This document shows, piece after piece, positions 6,344-63,629 of a stretch of DNA of 64,000 nucleotides. The DNA is from an uncultured Gammaproteobacteria bacterium (GTDB lineage Bacteria > Patescibacteriota > Patescibacteriia > Patescibacteriales > UBA12465), in the NCBI GenBank assembly GCA_964355275.1, contig CAYHCB010000006.1, positions 9,745 to 73,744 on the forward strand, given 5' to 3'. Each line of letters starts with the position of its first letter. Position 1 is the stretch's first letter. The notes below the pieces were generated by a model. That model worked only from the letters and a program-made list of their open reading frames with translations. It did not search any database and was not told the DNA's origin. A program made the translations under genes and the position numbers.

Positions 6344-6403
6344 AAAATAAACTAAGCAAATAAAAAACTAGATTTTAAAATCTAGTTTTTTATTTTATAC
6401 TTT

Positions 6404-29291: not shown

Positions 29292-32200
29292 TTAGTTAAT
29301 TGACATAGTTTGAGTGTCAGATGGTAAACCATTGACTCTGTAACTATTAAACCAGTAATTGTTTGCATCAGTGTTAGAAGCACTATCAGTCCATGTTAAT
29401 GAAGTGAAAGCAGGTGTTAACAAGGTACCAGCAGCATAAGCAGCTTCTGCTATGCTTGTGCTTACAGATTCACGGTTACTACCAGTAACAGTTGTTACAA
29501 GGATAACTTCAAAAGTCTTTGAAGTACCAGCAGCAACAATTTCTGGAGTAGTTGTACCGAAATCAACAAAGATTTGGGTAGCGGAAGTAGTAGAAGTAAC
29601 AGCTTTAGCTACACCATTAACCTTAATAGCGTTAGAAGTGGTAGCTAATGTTACGCTAGCTGTCTTGGTGTAATCCAAGGCAATTCTACTAACTTTTACA
29701 TCAGCATTAGAATCTGCAGTTACAGTGAATTTAGCAACTACGGAATTACCACTAGTTAAAGTAGTATTAGGTAATGCAAGTAAAGCAACTGTAGGAACAG
29801 TTTTTCTAATACGGAATTCGTTAGCAACTACAGATAAACCTGTAGTGTAAGTTAAATCACTATTTGAAGATTTAAACTTAACACTGTTAACTTGAAGTTT
29901 TAAGTAAGCATTGGTAGCGCTTTCGTCGTTATCAATGTTATTTAAAACAGCTTTAATTGTTAACTTCTTAGATCCATCAGCAGGAACAACGATAGCATTG
30001 TTATTAATAACAAACTTAGCCTCTCCATTGAAAGGAGTTACTGTATCGATCGCAGTTGAATTTCCTTCTACATATAATTTGTAAGAAGAAATTCTAGGAT
30101 CGGTAGTAGTAATAGTAGATGTACCAGTAGTACTAGCATTAACAACTGTTAATTCAGTTACATTAGCACTATCATTTGTAGCAACTAACTTAAATTGAGC
30201 AACTGATTGTTCAACTGAAGGTTTAGAAGCTAAAATAGCGCTTACTGGAGAATCACCATCCTTAGTAATACCTAAAGTACCAGCACCTACAACAGTAAAT
30301 TTAGCTGTTACTGGGGTACCAGAAACAGAAACTGTTTTACCACGAGAATCTTCAGCAGTAAATGTTGAAAGCATTTTAATAGAACCAGTAGCGGCAGTAT
30401 CAATAGATCCTTTAAGTTCGATTGTCTTAGTTTGGTTATCAGCTACAGAAATAGATAATGAAGAGAAGGTGGCGCCGGTTGTACCAAAATCTTTAGTAGA
30501 ACCAACTTGTACGCCGTCCATATATAACTTCATATCATAAATACTAGAAGCTAAAACAGTATTGTTAGTTGTTGAAGCGATATCAATTTGAGTGATTTTT
30601 ACAGTGTCATTTGTAGCTTTAACTGTAAATTTACCTAAAGAAATATCAGATGTACCAATAACAACATTCTTATCAGAATAACCATCGCTGCGGATTGCTG
30701 ACAAAGCAGCACCAGAAACAGTGATGCTAGCACCAGTAGCGGTACCAGTTATATCACCTTCAGCAACAGCATTTTGAGATAATACGTATTCTGGAGTATC
30801 TAATAAGTGAGAACTCTTGTTCAAACTTGCTTTAAATACAGCGGAAGTAGTAGTAGCATTTGATTTTACATCAACAGTAACCTTAATTTCATTGTCCCCC
30901 TTGTTTAAAGAAAGAGTTGATGAAAGAGTTGTGGTAGCTGCAGCTGTAATAGGGTCATAAGAATCAAGTAAAGCGCCGTTAACGTAAACCTTTACGTTTT
31001 CAAAAGCGTCTACATTTGAGAAATCAGTATTAATTCTCAAACCATCAGCTACGATAGCCTCATCAGCCTTTACATTAGCTAATAAAGCAACAACGGCCTT
31101 GGTTCCTTTGATAACTGTAACATCAGAAGGAGATGTGGATTTCTTAGAAACAGAAACTACGCCTGATTTGATAGTTAAGTTAGCAACTTGAACTAAAGAT
31201 GCATCTTGCACTTTAACACCAAAACCATTTGTAAGTTCATTACCATTAAAATCTTCAATCTTATTTAATGATAGAACTACATTGTTACTTGTTGCAGTGT
31301 TTTCTTTAGCAATAACATCACCTTTAATAGCAAAAATCTGGTCACCATCATCTTTTAACATGGTTAAACCACCATTACTAAAGGTAAAAGTAATATATTT
31401 ACCAGAAATAGCTGCAGTAGCTACTTTTTTACCATTATTTTCAAGATAGGCATTCATGATAACTTTAGCTAAATCTTCATCACCAGAATTTTTAAACATA
31501 GCGCTCTTTAGAACGATATCTCTAGTGTTTGAAGCAAAATTAACAGTAAATTTACCTAATTGAACGTTCTCGTCACCGACATTAACGTTTACAGCAGCGC
31601 CTCCTTCATCTAATAAAACTTCAGTAACGGAATAATCTGTTGGGGACATTAAATTTCCATTAATAGGGAAAGAACCGGAGATAGCGGCAGCAGTAGCACT
31701 AACTGCAGAAGCAGAAGCGATACTTAAACCAATATTACCAGAACCTGTATTAGTGGATGGGAAAGAAGCGATTAAATCTAAAGTAACTGTTTGACCAGCA
31801 CCAACTGTTAGGGCTGGAGAGAAAGTCAAAATAGATTCATCATTGGAATTCATAGACTTCTTAGAAGCTACGATAGTACCATTTTGTTCTGCCCAAACTT
31901 TATCAATGTTAGTGTAAGCGGAAAGACCAATTCTTTTAACAGTAATAGAGTTAATAGTAACAGCACCATCATTAGCGGCAGTTAAGTTAACTTTAGCCAT
32001 TGGGATGCGAGCACCATTTTTTGGAACAGAAGCGCCAGCTGGAGTAGCAGCACTTAAAGAAGCTGTTAAACCAGAACCGGTCACAATAGGACCTGTACCA
32101 CCTACTTGAGCATCATAGTTTAAACTTTCAGCGCCTGTAACAGCATTTCCAGAAGCTGTAATAGTGTTGGAAATAGTGATTACATTAGCGAAGTTAAATC

Positions 32201-32783
32201 TATTTGCATTGAAAGCAGCTTCGTTAGCAATTGAACGATAGTTAGCGCCATCATATAAATAGACAGCACCTGAACCGGCATTCTTTACTAAAGTACCTGC
32301 AGGGATTTGACCATTAGCTAAAGCTGTACCAATAGTGTAGTTAGTAAAGAAAGCATCAGAAACATCGATAACTCTCTTTGCCCAATTTGCACCAAAGATA
32401 GCAATAGCATCAGCCTCACTAGAAATCTTTCTTAAAACACCGTTGGCTTCAACAGCGTAAACAGAAGGATCAGTTGTGATTTTAACTAATTTTGTACCAG
32501 GTCTTACCACAACGTTAGCTCCTAATGGATAAGATGCTAATTCTGAAGCAGAAATAGTAACTACACCACTAAAATCATTGTGCCAAGAGAAGAATACAGA
32601 TTCACTAGGGAAAACATATCTCTTTCCATCGTTGCCTAAGAAATAAACAGCTGATAAGCCGTCCATTTTAATGAGATCACCAGCTTGAGGAGCAGCTGCA
32701 TTGGCAAAAGAACCAATACCAGTCATTCCTAATACTGTTAATGTCATTACGCCGATGGTTAAGAATTTGCGTAAATTTTTCAT
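29292..32783 (-). CDS. Giant secreted surface (S-layer-like) protein with repeated beta-sandwich-type modules
   Basis: Start moved to ATG 32783 (MKNLRKF... classical signal peptide ending ANA/AAP). T/S/A/V/N-rich. At least 5 recurrences of a (G/A)KFTV.A.ND...V....I module signature. Confidence 0.7.
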   Translation of the reverse strand: MKNLRKFLTIGVMTLTVLGMTGIGSFANAAAPQAGDLIKMDGLSAVYFLGNDGKRYVFPSESVFFSWHNDFSGVVTISASELASYPLGANVVVRPGTKLVKITTDPSVYAVEANGVLRKISSEADAIAIFGANWAKRVIDVSDAFFTNYTIGTALANGQIPAGTLVKNAGSGAVYLYDGANYRSIANEAAFNANRFNFANVITISNTITASGNAVTGAESLNYDAQVGGTGPIVTGSGLTASLSAATPAGASVPKNGARIPMAKVNLTAANDGAVTINSITVKRIGLSAYTNIDKVWAEQNGTIVASKKSMNSNDESILTFSPALTVGAGQTVTLDLIASFPSTNTGSGNIGLSIASASAVSATAAAISGSFPINGNLMSPTDYSVTEVLLDEGGAAVNVNVGDENVQLGKFTVNFASNTRDIVLKSAMFKNSGDEDLAKVIMNAYLENNGKKVATAAISGKYITFTFSNGGLTMLKDDGDQIFAIKGDVIAKENTATSNNVVLSLNKIEDFNGNELTNGFGVKVQDASLVQVANLTIKSGVVSVSKKSTSPSDVTVIKGTKAVVALLANVKADEAIVADGLRINTDFSNVDAFENVKVYVNGALLDSYDPITAAATTTLSSTLSLNKGDNEIKVTVDVKSNATTTSAVFKASLNKSSHLLDTPEYVLSQNAVAEGDITGTATGASITVSGAALSAIRSDGYSDKNVVIGTSDISLGKFTVKATNDTVKITQIDIASTTNNTVLASSIYDMKLYMDGVQVGSTKDFGTTGATFSSLSISVADNQTKTIELKGSIDTAATGSIKMLSTFTAEDSRGKTVSVSGTPVTAKFTVVGAGTLGITKDGDSPVSAILASKPSVEQSVAQFKLVATNDSANVTELTVVNASTTGTSTITTTDPRISSYKLYVEGNSTAIDTVTPFNGEAKFVINNNAIVVPADGSKKLTIKAVLNNIDNDESATNAYLKLQVNSVKFKSSNSDLTYTTGLSVVANEFRIRKTVPTVALLALPNTTLTSGNSVVAKFTVTADSNADVKVSRIALDYTKTASVTLATTSNAIKVNGVAKAVTSTTSATQIFVDFGTTTPEIVAAGTSKTFEVILVTTVTGSNRESVSTSIAEAAYAAGTLLTPAFTSLTWTDSASNTDANNYWFNSYRVNGLPSDTQTMSIN

Positions 32784-33120
32784 ATTTGTAATTAAGGATT
32801 CGAAAGTTGAATGTCCAAACAATTTTAGTCTGAACAATTCCTCTCTCGATATTTATTCGGTTTAAGCTACCATCTGAAAGATAGACCATTTAGGTACATC
32901 AATCGGAATCCCGCTTCCCTAATCGCGCTAGAATTGCGGACTAGTGAAAAGCTAAATCGATGTACACTTGGATATCTCACGATTTAAGCTTATCCCCGAA
33001 TTTTTTTTGTTTTTAATAGAGCGAAACCAATCCTTTGCAGGACCCGACCCTTTACGGGGTTTCACTGATCGCATTTAGCAAGCTAAACGCAGATCTGTTA
33101 ATTTATCTCACACCGTTTCA
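32784..33120 (-). promoter_or_regulatory. Long structured 5' leader (and possible promoter) of the S-layer-like gene
   Basis: 360-nt non-coding gap, GC-richer than other spacers. Several helices whose G-U pairs exist only on the minus strand. TGAAAC hexamer at 33115-33120 (minus). Confidence 0.45.
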
Positions 33121-61622: not shown

Positions 61623-61929
61623 AGCTTTGAAAAAATTTAGTTATTAATATATTATATTTTTTAAATATTTTTTTATTTATAAAATAATATTTTTTTTGTT
61701 TTTCTTGTCTAAGATCAATTAACTTTAAATCTTTTAAAACTCGAAGATGGCTGGAAACTAAATTTTGTGATAATTCTAAATTTTCATATATATCACAAAC
61801 ACAGCGTTCCCCGTCTTTTAATAAACAAAGAATTCTTAATCTATTATCTTCTCCAATTACCTTAAAAAGTTTAGACAAATCGCTAAACTCTAAAGAGATT
61901 TTTTTATTTATGCAATCTTTATTTTTCAT
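61612..61929 (-). CDS. ArsR/SmtB-family metalloregulator
   Basis: wHTH with alpha3 ERCVCDI and LSQNLVSSHLRVLKDLKLI. ATG 61929 preferred over track start 61962, whose extra codons are the palindrome. Confidence 0.8.
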   Translation of the reverse strand: MKNKDCINKKISLEFSDLSKLFKVIGEDNRLRILCLLKDGERCVCDIYENLELSQNLVSSHLRVLKDLKLIDLRQEKQKKYYFINKKIFKKYNILITKFFQSYEQ

Positions 61930-61936
61930 TTGTTTA

Positions 61937-61952
61937 ATCAATATATATTGAT
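61937..61952. promoter_or_regulatory. Perfect 16-bp palindrome, candidate ArsR operator
   Basis: ATCAATATATATTGAT, 8 nt upstream of the ArsR ATG. Confidence 0.5.
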
Positions 61953-62096
61953 ATACTAACATTTAAAAATTTTACGGTCAAATATTTTTTGTCCTAAAGA
62001 TAATTAAAATTAAACTAGGTAGTGAGTAAATCGAGCCCCATTAAAGGCCCTATTTTAGTTCTACATCTTCTTGAGAGGAATTCTGCGCCGCTAAGG

Positions 62097-62124
62097 AGGA
62101 TGAAGCAATTCATCCTTTTTTTTA
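62097..62124 (+). terminator. Orphan plus-strand intrinsic terminator
   Basis: 8-bp stem AGGATGAA/TTCATCCT, GCAA (GNRA) loop, run of 9 T. No plus-strand ORF precedes it. Confidence 0.65.
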
Positions 62125-62233
62125 TTTAAGAAACAAATTAGACAAATTAAAAGCCCCAAAACTGTTTTAGTCTCAGGGCTCATAAATTTTATATTGCTGT
62201 TCTATTCAGATGATGGTGGGGTACATTACTGTT

Positions 62234-62644
62234 TTACACAGCTTTGTTGAGGGCGATGTGATCTGAGAAGAACTGGGTGTACATTTGGTGTACTGCCAGC
62301 ACGTGTTGCGTTTTATCGTTGAGGATGTTTGACCAAGCTTGATCGCTCAGTACCAGGTTACAATAGACTCTGCCGTCTTTCATCGTATCGACGATGAAGA
62401 CAACCAGGAGATCGCCTGCTGACTCCTCTTGAACTGTAAACAACTCTGCAAGTGGTCTGGCCGAAAATTCAAACCAATCGTTTCCGGAATGGTGAATTCT
62501 TTTGGATTTGAAAATCGTACAAACATTTTTTAAACTAAATCCGTAGTTATACAGATAATCAGAATAAGAAAGTGATTTTTGCATTTCCAGTAAACCACTT
62601 GGATTACTTAAGATCAAATTTTTGATGCTCGCTTTTGTTTCCAT
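62234..62644 (-). CDS. Orphan 136-aa protein with anomalous composition
   Basis: Track ORF. The 3' two-thirds of the gene hand-counts to 43-52% GC per 60-nt line, against ~25-35% nearby. No motif recognised. Confidence 0.55.
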   Translation of the reverse strand: METKASIKNLILSNPSGLLEMQKSLSYSDYLYNYGFSLKNVCTIFKSKRIHHSGNDWFEFSARPLAELFTVQEESAGDLLVVFIVDTMKDGRVYCNLVLSDQAWSNILNDKTQHVLAVHQMYTQFFSDHIALNKAV

Positions 62645-62651
62645 ATGATTA

Positions 62652-62701
62652 TTTATTAGGTTTTCTCAACTTCCATCAAGAAGCTAGGAAAACCTAATAA
62701 A
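62652..62701. repeat. 14-bp perfect inverted repeat with 22-nt spacer, just upstream of the 62644 start codon
   Basis: TTTATTAGGTTTTC (62652-62665) and GAAAACCTAATAAA (62688-62701). Confidence 0.7.
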
Positions 62702-62745
62702 CATTGAAAAGATTAGATTTTTAAATAACTATTTTTGATAAACTT

Positions 62746-62754
62746 ACTATATCA
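62746..62754 (-). promoter_or_regulatory. Extended -10-like element for the orphan gene
   Basis: Minus strand TGATATAGT about 100 nt upstream of the ATG. Confidence 0.3.
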
Positions 62755-62897
62755 CATTTTTAATATATTGTCAATATTATAACAAAAAATGGGCTGAAAT
62801 TAACCTACTTTTTAGACCTGTCATCCTCCGGATTTTAAGCTAATTTTGAAATATTATATCTAATATTAAATAATAAAAATAGATAACTGGATTTATA

Positions 62898-63629
62898 TTA
62901 AAGCCACTTCAATCTTTCACTCTTAGCTGTAGCAGGGTTATCTATTTTATACTGAGGATGTAATTTAGCCCATTTTGATATATCCGTCCATTTAAGGCCA
63001 TGAAAGCCGAATTGCCCATCCCAATAATAATTATCTTTATCCTCTGACTCAAAACTAAACTGCTTAGCCAAATTAATGGGGGCAAATTTTATTCCTTCAG
63101 CTTCTAAAAGATTACGATACCAAACGCAAAGAGATGTGTCTTCTGGATGTAATCTAGTTATTTCACCTGTCTGAGACAGTTTCGATGTTAACTCTAACAT
63201 TTTTTTACTGCGCAAACTGAAACCACCATTTCCGACCACAAGCTTACCAATAAGTTCTTCTGGAAATGAAAAATTAGTAACCGACCAATCAGCTACTAAC
63301 CAAGGGGCACCAATATAATCATATTCTAGATATTCATCGGTCCAAGCCTTAGGGTTAAGTATGAAGCCATCATACTGAACTAATAAGACATGAGTGGTGT
63401 TAACATATTGCCATAGATCATTTATTACAAAGTGAGAATATTCTTCGGTTGAACTGATAGCTTTAATTTTAACTATATTTTCTTTATTGGCCACGTCTAA
63501 AGAGGTTAGCAGCTTAACTTCGGCAAACTCAAAATCATTTTGGCAAATACTAATCGCCAATCTAAGCCTTTCAACATCGACACAATCAATGCCTAGTAAT
63601 GTTACGTTTTTTAGTTTTCTTTTATTCAT
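62898..63629 (-). CDS. DUF5672-like protein (putative glycosyltransferase-like), tentative
   Basis: VTLLGIDCVD, YDYIGAPW and GNGGFSLRS blocks, matching my recollection of DUF5672. Confidence 0.5.
   Translation of the reverse strand: MNKRKLKNVTLLGIDCVDVERLRLAISICQNDFEFAEVKLLTSLDVANKENIVKIKAISSTEEYSHFVINDLWQYVNTTHVLLVQYDGFILNPKAWTDEYLEYDYIGAPWLVADWSVTNFSFPEELIGKLVVGNGGFSLRSKKMLELTSKLSQTGEITRLHPEDTSLCVWYRNLLEAEGIKFAPINLAKQFSFESEDKDNYYWDGQFGFHGLKWTDISKWAKLHPQYKIDNPATAKSERLKWL

Follow-up and report, generated by a model that had tools for sequence, protein, structure and literature searches.

A candidate mobile single-gene cassette of Patescibacteria with a conserved hairpin in its predicted mRNA leader

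Introduction

The closest described counterparts of the RNA element reported here are hairpins in the leaders of bacterial mRNAs. In the 5′ untranslated regions (UTRs) of lambda N and of the E. coli genes rnc, pnp and adhE, a hairpin is processed by RNase III. In the leaders of ompA, ermC and aprE, a stem-loop a few nt from the 5′ end stabilises the mRNA. Here, we describe a locus in a 64,000-nt stretch of a Patescibacteria genome (contig CAYHCB010000006.1; the whole stretch is referred to as the window), where a minus-strand gene for a 136-aa protein at 62234..62644 is preceded by a leader with a predicted 24-bp hairpin. An initial annotation had viewed the gene as a compositionally foreign orphan in a laterally acquired or recombined cassette, with an inverted repeat that could occlude initiation or serve as an operator. 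The locus is, on balance, best explained as a mobile cassette that carries an RNA hairpin acting post-transcriptionally, and the gene itself belongs to a conserved family.

Results

Organisation of the locus and the protein family

The open reading frame (ORF) of 136 aa was confirmed, and the sequence around it pointed to a self-contained monocistronic unit with a promoter, a structured leader, the ORF and an intrinsic terminator. The elements were as follows, with loci of other genomes given as L numbers:

61982..62890, no strand: 909-nt variable segment bounded by the DUF5672 gene and the ArsR promoter; 104 nt in L040
62746..62774, minus strand: predicted promoter with TTGACA, a 17-nt spacer with TG, and TATAGT (extended -10); includes TGATATAGT
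62645..62739, minus strand: predicted 5′ UTR of ~95 nt, with the transcription start placed from the -10 box
62234..62644, minus strand: 136-aa ORF with an ATG start
62142..62181, minus strand: predicted intrinsic terminator of the gene, a stem-loop with a U tract, conserved with L038

The promoter matches the consensus at 11 of 12 positions with the upstream TG present, and the homologues are preceded by the same layout (TTGACA-17-TGnTATAAT). The ~100-nt leader that had been proposed from the TGATATAGT element was thus supported, at about 95 nt. There was no Shine-Dalgarno (SD) motif in the 5′ UTR of the gene. A comparison with L038, the locus of the closest homologue (81% aa identity), showed that the 3′ arm of the leader, the ORF and the terminator were in common and that the sequences diverged beyond the terminator. 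Since the similarity ended there, the terminator was taken as the 3′ edge of the cassette. Most hairpin-type (type A) leaders also had a box like AGTTCTTTGA near the predicted transcription start, 10-20 nt past the -10 box, and the copy in the window, AAGTTTATC at about 62737-62745, is degenerate.

A search of 5.8 billion proteins returned homologues in at least 34 clusters with 53-81% identity, nearly all of them 132-140 aa long, and an exhaustive phmmer search over 1.84 billion representatives gave 15 clusters at 50% identity. The alignment had 22 invariant columns, including an N-terminal NPSGLLE motif, Cys95 and an HQMY motif, and pairwise dN/dS values of 0.10-0.20 showed that the family is under purifying selection. 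All hosts were metagenome-assembled genomes of Patescibacteria (Nomurabacteria, Falkowbacteria, Paceibacterota and Minisyncoccia), and the neighbours of the gene in the window matched Falkowbacteria best. The gene is almost certainly a real, conserved member of an unnamed family restricted to Patescibacteria, and the term orphan no longer applies. It had also been noted that the product has no recognisable motif, and this was borne out: the protein had no match in NCBIfam, PADLOC or PHROG and no Pfam match at cut-off, and none of the 34 homologue clusters had a Pfam domain. The sole Pfam match, to DUF4735 over residues 59-127 (E = 0.013; 15.5 bits compared to a gathering cut-off of 31.2; 67 of 283 profile positions), was taken as chance.

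The proteins of the family are ~135 aa long, soluble and mildly acidic (median pI 6.2, net charge -2). AlphaFold2 with a deeper alignment predicted an alpha/beta domain with a pLDDT of 88.7 and a pTM of 0.85. Foldseek found no neighbour in the PDB (best E = 0.97 for the first model, and 1.6 with a TM of about 0.2 for the deeper-alignment model) and nothing significant in BFVD, which was searched with the first model only (best E = 0.13). Sequence-profile searches of the PDB also gave no match (best E = 0.33 and 0.49), and the predicted fold is one with no detectable structural neighbour. No description of the protein family or of the hairpin motif was found in the literature.

Base composition and codon usage

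The G+C counts given in the initial annotation for the 60-nt lines from 62221 to 62460 (43.3, 45.0, 46.7 and 51.7%) were reproduced exactly, and line 62521-62580, put at ~25%, was indeed low but at 21.7%. The window average is 32.9%. The peak 240-nt G+C within the gene, 0.475, was the joint highest in the window and 2.9 standard deviations (sd) over the mean. The same value was reached at 2031-2520, inside ORF 1544-2623, which is outside the top 12 ORFs by G+C at third codon positions (GC3), so that amino-acid composition and not synonymous sites is presumably the source of the high G+C there.

The 58 window ORFs of at least 100 aa served as the background for composition. The gene ranked second among them in whole-gene GC (0.401) and first in GC3 (0.453; background mean 0.238, sd 0.055, z = +3.9), while its G+C at second codon positions was unremarkable at 0.31. 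The compositional anomaly is located at synonymous sites. The gene was also the strongest codon-usage outlier in the window, with a length-scaled chi-square of 1.34 compared to 0.68 for the runner-up. Twofold codons of the pyrimidine-ending (Y) type ended in C in 45% of cases compared to 17% in the background (p = 5e-5), and this excess came without an excess of G-ending Lys, Glu or Gln codons, as AAA, GAA and CAA were kept. CTG and CTC made up 9 of 16 Leu codons, and T at fourfold sites was 20% compared to 50% in the background, with a gain of G.

A compositional shift inside the gene had been pointed out, and it was found as a GC3 of 0.32 in codons 1-57 and 0.55 in codons 58-137. The family mean showed the same 5′-to-3′ climb, as did several homologues (0.23/0.48, 0.28/0.47 and 0.21/0.40), and the closest homologue, L038, had a similar gradient (0.33/0.49) together with a GC excess over its own contig, as in the window gene. 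Because the gradient is a family trait, an intragenic recombination breakpoint is unnecessary, and the suggestion of a recombined cassette was dropped. Synonymous-site conservation was looked for as a sign of an element embedded in the ORF; none was found, and codons vary freely. The window has no ribosomal-protein genes that could serve to calibrate the codon bias.

Distribution and mobility

When the presence of the gene was compared among relatives, an empty site was found in L040. The flanks are orthologous (the NapH-like Fer4_5 protein is 84% identical and the DUF5672 protein 66% identical). In L040 the DUF5672 gene and the ArsR operon are direct neighbours, with 104 nt between the gene and the ArsR promoter compared to 909 nt in the window. 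By tblastn, no homologue of the gene was found in the 21-kb loci of L039, L040 and L041. Strains with an identical protein (L005-L008) carried the gene at the same place, and no synteny was conserved beyond that, as the gene neighbours differed in every lineage examined. The distribution is patchy: a pattern scan matched 11 of 185,579 species representatives. Over 22 loci, the GC of the gene hardly followed that of the surrounding locus (r = 0.19, slope 0.13). The clearest evidence of mobility is the comparison of L013 with L014, where locus GC is 0.276 and 0.365, respectively. Among ORFs of at least 70 aa in 10-12 kb these loci have only this gene in common, with 91% aa identity, a dS of 0.25 and 87% nt identity over about 0.9 kb. 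The cassette has probably been acquired horizontally, or is at least mobile between genomes, in line with the lateral acquisition originally suspected from the composition. No homologue was found in the viral, phage and plasmid collections IMG/VR, INPHARED and PLSDB.

In the clade whose leaders have no hairpin (type B; L013 5760-6649, L014 5771-6642, L028 and L016), a conserved block of ~0.9 kb is edged by tRNA-like fragments, with TGGTTCGAATCCACGACGGGTG upstream and ...TTTCGAACTTCGTCCACGACCCCGAGCA downstream, and the similarity halts after TTTCGAACTTCGTCCACGACCCCGAGCA. Several type B loci lie directly downstream of a tRNA-Gln gene. The fragments may be a trace of tRNA-targeted integration.

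The leader hairpin and its conservation

The perfect 14-bp inverted repeat with one additional U-G pair, ending 7 nt ahead of the ATG, was found as described earlier and extends to 16 bp. When the leader was folded, a single dominant 24-bp hairpin was predicted, composed of the following parts:

62650..62703, minus strand: predicted leader hairpin, 54 nt, 24 bp, from fold, covariation and strand asymmetry
62688-62703 / 62650-62665, minus strand: outer stem of 16 bp with 1 G-U, made of the 14-bp repeat (62652-62665 / 62688-62701), a G-U pair and a U-A pair
62687 / 62666, minus strand: C/A 1x1 internal loop, from the fold
62679-62686 / 62667-62674, minus strand: inner stem of 8 bp with 3 G-U, from the fold
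62675-62678, minus strand: UGAU loop, from the fold

The calculated ΔG was -26.7 kcal/mol, the stem ends 5 nt ahead of the AUG, and the AUG was unpaired in the minimum free energy (MFE) structure. Compared to shuffled sequences, the 106-nt leader had a z of -4.6 and its best local hairpin one of -7.1. Among the upstream regions of 60 window ORFs, this leader had the most stable hairpin, and the next-strongest ones were mostly U-tailed terminators of the preceding genes. Rfam gave only RNase P and one tRNA over the window at the gathering threshold, and in a permissive search of 61900-62900 the best match was a miRNA-precursor model with 23 bits compared to 60.

A hairpin of the same design was found in 11 further homologue loci (L001, L002, L009, L011, L017, L019, L022, L026, L029, L034 and L035), where it likewise follows a promoter of this type and stands ahead of the ORF. 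In the shared design, a central 1x1 loop separates the outer stem from an inner stem of 7-9 bp; the hairpins total 14-30 bp and differ largely in sequence. The central loop was C/A in 8 of the 12 hairpins. The L019 hairpin is ended by a contig edge and was left out of scoring; in the 11 complete hairpins (the window and ten homologue loci), z ranged from -3.7 to -7.1.

In an alignment of six of these phylogenetically related sequences, 91% of cells were paired, compared to 38-51% when the partner was slid, and none of 500 shuffles equalled the observed pairing values. Changes on both sides, that is compensatory ones, were found in 14 of 24 pairs, and one G-U pair was invariant. A covariance model built from the six sequences found three loci outside its seed, L001, L019 and L038, and had no other significant match in the 328 kb searched, which took in the remainder of the window. 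MAFFT did not align the most divergent hairpins (L009, L029 and L035), nor did the model recover them, and their support is from individual folds. In all 11 cases compared, folding was more stable for the sense strand than for the antisense strand. There were 46 G-U pairs compared to 9 A-C mismatches (p = 4e-7), whereas a ratio of only about 1.3 to 1 is expected from the G>C skew of the strand. Such an asymmetry points to RNA of the mRNA strand and speaks against an operator or cruciform. Taken together, the hairpin is very probably conserved at the RNA level, as judged from covariation and strand asymmetry.

In the protein tree, the hairpin-bearing loci were basal and the hairpin-less type B formed a derived clade, in which the leader has been replaced by a short one of about 35 nt whose sequence is conserved. 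The hairpin is taken as the ancestral leader element of the family.

Two of these loci showed a variation on this arrangement. At L011 9019-9130 (minus strand), an unrelated gene for a 139-aa lipoprotein-like product with a faint Inhibitor_I42 match is preceded by a TTGACA promoter, a GGTTCTTTACAGT box shared with the leader of L034, a long hairpin (z -5.6) and an A-rich spacer, and the covariance model scored this leader at E = 0.09. At L017 4402-4739, a promoter and hairpin (z -7.1) stand ahead of a small ORF whose product is predicted to be a membrane protein with two helices, 94 aa long when read from a GTG start and about 77 aa when read from the first ATG. This unit is bicistronic, and the family gene starts 4 nt past the stop of the small ORF.

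Translation initiation and possible roles of the hairpin

None of 57 window ORFs had an SD-like motif, and many had a TATAAT box 5-8 nt ahead of the ATG. This suggests that leaderless or SD-independent initiation is widespread in the genome, which agrees with the loss of the anti-SD sequence reported for many Parcubacteria (PMC9297842). Without SD sites, initiation would depend on an open, A-rich start region, and the hairpin would be expected to act after transcription.

The distance from hairpin to AUG ranged from 1 to 29 nt among the homologues and was mostly 14-29 nt of A-rich sequence, so that in most of them the hairpin cannot work by hiding the start. Occlusion of initiation, one of the two roles originally suggested, was therefore plausible for the window lineage, where the stem ends 5 nt from the AUG, but not for the homologues. 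In the window lineage, the spacer may have shrunk to 5 nt, and with the stem inside the ribosome footprint a lower translation is expected, which would damp initiation from a very strong promoter.

The two helical turns, the conserved and mostly C/A central 1x1 loop and the conserved G-U pair would suit recognition by a double-strand-specific factor. RNase III-type processing that sets the fate of the mRNA is the leading candidate. RNase III substrates have ~20 bp or more of near-continuous double-stranded RNA, and the hairpin has 24 bp in the window and 14-30 bp in the homologues. A structural insulator or stability element is a further possibility. We tentatively suggest that the hairpin could control translation or mRNA processing, with a specific processing or translation-damping role, although the case for this is clearly less firm than that for its conservation.

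Two other roles were considered and rejected. A terminator or attenuator did not fit, as the hairpin is followed by AUCAUAUG and by A-rich spacers in the homologues, whereas real terminators in the window have U tracts. An RNA thermometer of the ROSE or fourU type did not fit a genome region with no SD sites, an unpaired AUG, a stem of -26.7 kcal/mol and a spacer of 1 to 29 nt.

Other features of the window

The neighbouring plus-strand terminator at 62093-62120 had been listed as an orphan terminator or small RNA (sRNA) candidate. In the near-identical strain L005 (98.7% nt identity) the same element is the terminator of a PEMT-family gene, and L005 has an extra 2255 nt at 62091-62096, with the PEMT-family gene and a DUF4153 gene, that are absent from the window. 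Because the window does not have these 2255 nt, the terminator is most simply read from the sequence as a deletion remnant, or as marking the site of an insertion in L005, and not as an sRNA.

A 50-nt hairpin without a U tail at 32800-32850 on the minus strand (ΔG -21.5, z -4.6) lies 17 nt upstream of ORF 29292-32783, which encodes 1163 aa with no Pfam match, and is possibly another structured leader. At 6358-6395, a perfect 19+19-nt palindrome (AAATAAAAAACTAGATTTT / AAAATCTAGTTTTTTATTT) between two convergent ORFs is probably a bidirectional terminator.

Discussion

Some observations weigh against a mobile cassette with a post-transcriptionally acting hairpin. There was no integrase or transposase at any locus examined, and no direct repeats flank the cassette in the window. 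The direction of the insertion or deletion was inferred, and a deletion in the relatives is an alternative explanation of the comparison with L040. The codon bias is partly of the type made by strong expression. Concerning the hairpin, the sequences are phylogenetically related and the counts of pairs and changes are not independent; the entire type B clade keeps the protein without the hairpin; and because the distance to the AUG varies from 1 to 29 nt, start occlusion is not a conserved role. The hairpin begins about 40 nt from the predicted 5′ end, unlike the classical 5′-terminal stabilisers, and a signature search for RNase III, which carries no weight either way, gave no rnc match in ~400 kb, made up of one 64-kb window of this genome and fragments of others.

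The composition could also be explained by a native, very highly expressed gene under translational selection that was lost in the relatives and not gained here. The near-consensus extended -10 promoter, the enrichment of C-ending twofold codons with AAA, GAA and CAA retained, and the family-wide climb in GC3 would all fit, as would the range of the gene at 25-42% GC across hosts of 26-44% GC, a possible constraint. But the loss of fourfold T in favour of G and the shift of Leu to CTG and CTC are not the usual preferred set in AT-rich bacteria, and neither the empty site with conserved flanks, the sharing of nothing but the cassette between L013 and L014 despite a dS of 0.25, nor the patchy distribution is expected for such a gene. 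We regard translational selection with loss as unlikely, although it deserves to be kept in mind. A chimera, in which a native AT-rich 5′ third was joined to a foreign GC-rich 3′ part, would account for the step in GC3 between codons 1-57 and 58-137, but the same gradient in the family mean, in several homologues and in L038 makes it hard to credit, as does the amino-acid identity with L038, which stays at 0.69-1.00 in 13-codon blocks with no breakpoint. A mobile origin of the cassette remains the preferred explanation.

For the hairpin, translational autoregulation through binding of the encoded protein, as in the operators of ribosomal proteins or phage coat proteins, is suggested by the joint occurrence of hairpin and gene in 12 loci and by the conserved 1x1 loop and invariant G-U pair, which suggest specific recognition. 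It is made improbable because no RNA-binding motif or fold is recognisable in these mildly acidic proteins, because the protein persists in the type B clade where the hairpin is absent, and because a similar leader stands ahead of the unrelated gene in L011. The other role that had been raised for the inverted repeat, a DNA operator or roadblock for a dimeric repressor such as the neighbouring ArsR-family protein, has in its favour a perfect 14-bp repeat between promoter and start codon and an ArsR-type gene about 700 bp downstream of the repeat. We consider it very improbable. The arms are 22 nt apart with a spacer that is itself paired, they lie at +40 to +95 from the predicted transcription start, and they change freely among the homologues while pairing is kept, so that there is covariation but no conserved half-site. 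G-U pairs exceed A-C mismatches, the sense strand folds better than the antisense strand in all 11 cases, and the ArsR gene is unlinked to the family elsewhere. A recombination or mobility site similar to an integron attC site or a miniature inverted-repeat transposable element (MITE) would explain why structure and not sequence is conserved, as in attC sites, on a cassette that moves. The hairpin, though, belongs to the transcribed leader and lies 5′ of the ORF, in contrast to attC sites with their 3′ position, and by inspection its arms have no RYYYAAC...GTTRRRY core in attC orientation. There is no integrase nearby and a single copy in 64 kb, the G-U asymmetry is on the mRNA strand, and the type B cassettes provide the clearest evidence of mobility yet have no hairpin; a mobility site is thus the least credible of the alternatives considered. 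An RNA element acting after transcription was preferred over all of these.

Patescibacteria genomes are small and their accessory content is largely unannotated. The locus illustrates cleanly how a single-gene unit comes and goes between genomes that are otherwise syntenic, and it adds an undescribed protein family, whose predicted fold is confident and has no structural neighbour, together with an undescribed 5′-UTR structure, supported by covariation, in a lineage without SD-guided initiation. It offers a useful setting to study how leader structure tunes translation without SD sites and by what route genes pass from one reduced genome to another where no mobility enzyme is obvious. More speculatively, the unit might represent a new kind of minimal mobile cassette of Patescibacteria, 0.6-0.9 kb long, without a recombinase of its own and sometimes edged by tRNA-like fragments, that moves between genomes of different GC and carries an unseen fold and a leader RNA that controls expression or is needed for maintenance.

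Compared to known systems, the locus resembles phage morons and other autonomous accessory cassettes in being a self-contained unit of ~0.6-0.9 kb whose composition is atypical and which is inserted between two genes that a relative has side by side; unlike morons, it lies outside any prophage, with no phage genes nearby. With integron attC sites it shares an imperfect inverted repeat, conserved in structure, on a mobile single-gene cassette. In contrast to these sites, the hairpin is 5′ of the ORF and transcribed with the gene, with no R′′/R′ core sites and no intI nearby. Like the stabilisers of ompA, ermC and aprE, it is very stable and stands in the leader of a strongly promoted gene, but at about 40 nt from the predicted transcription start. 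The RNase III-processed leaders have no sequence relation to the hairpin, and the likeness to them lies in predicted structure alone: a roughly two-turn stem with a small internal loop near the start codon.

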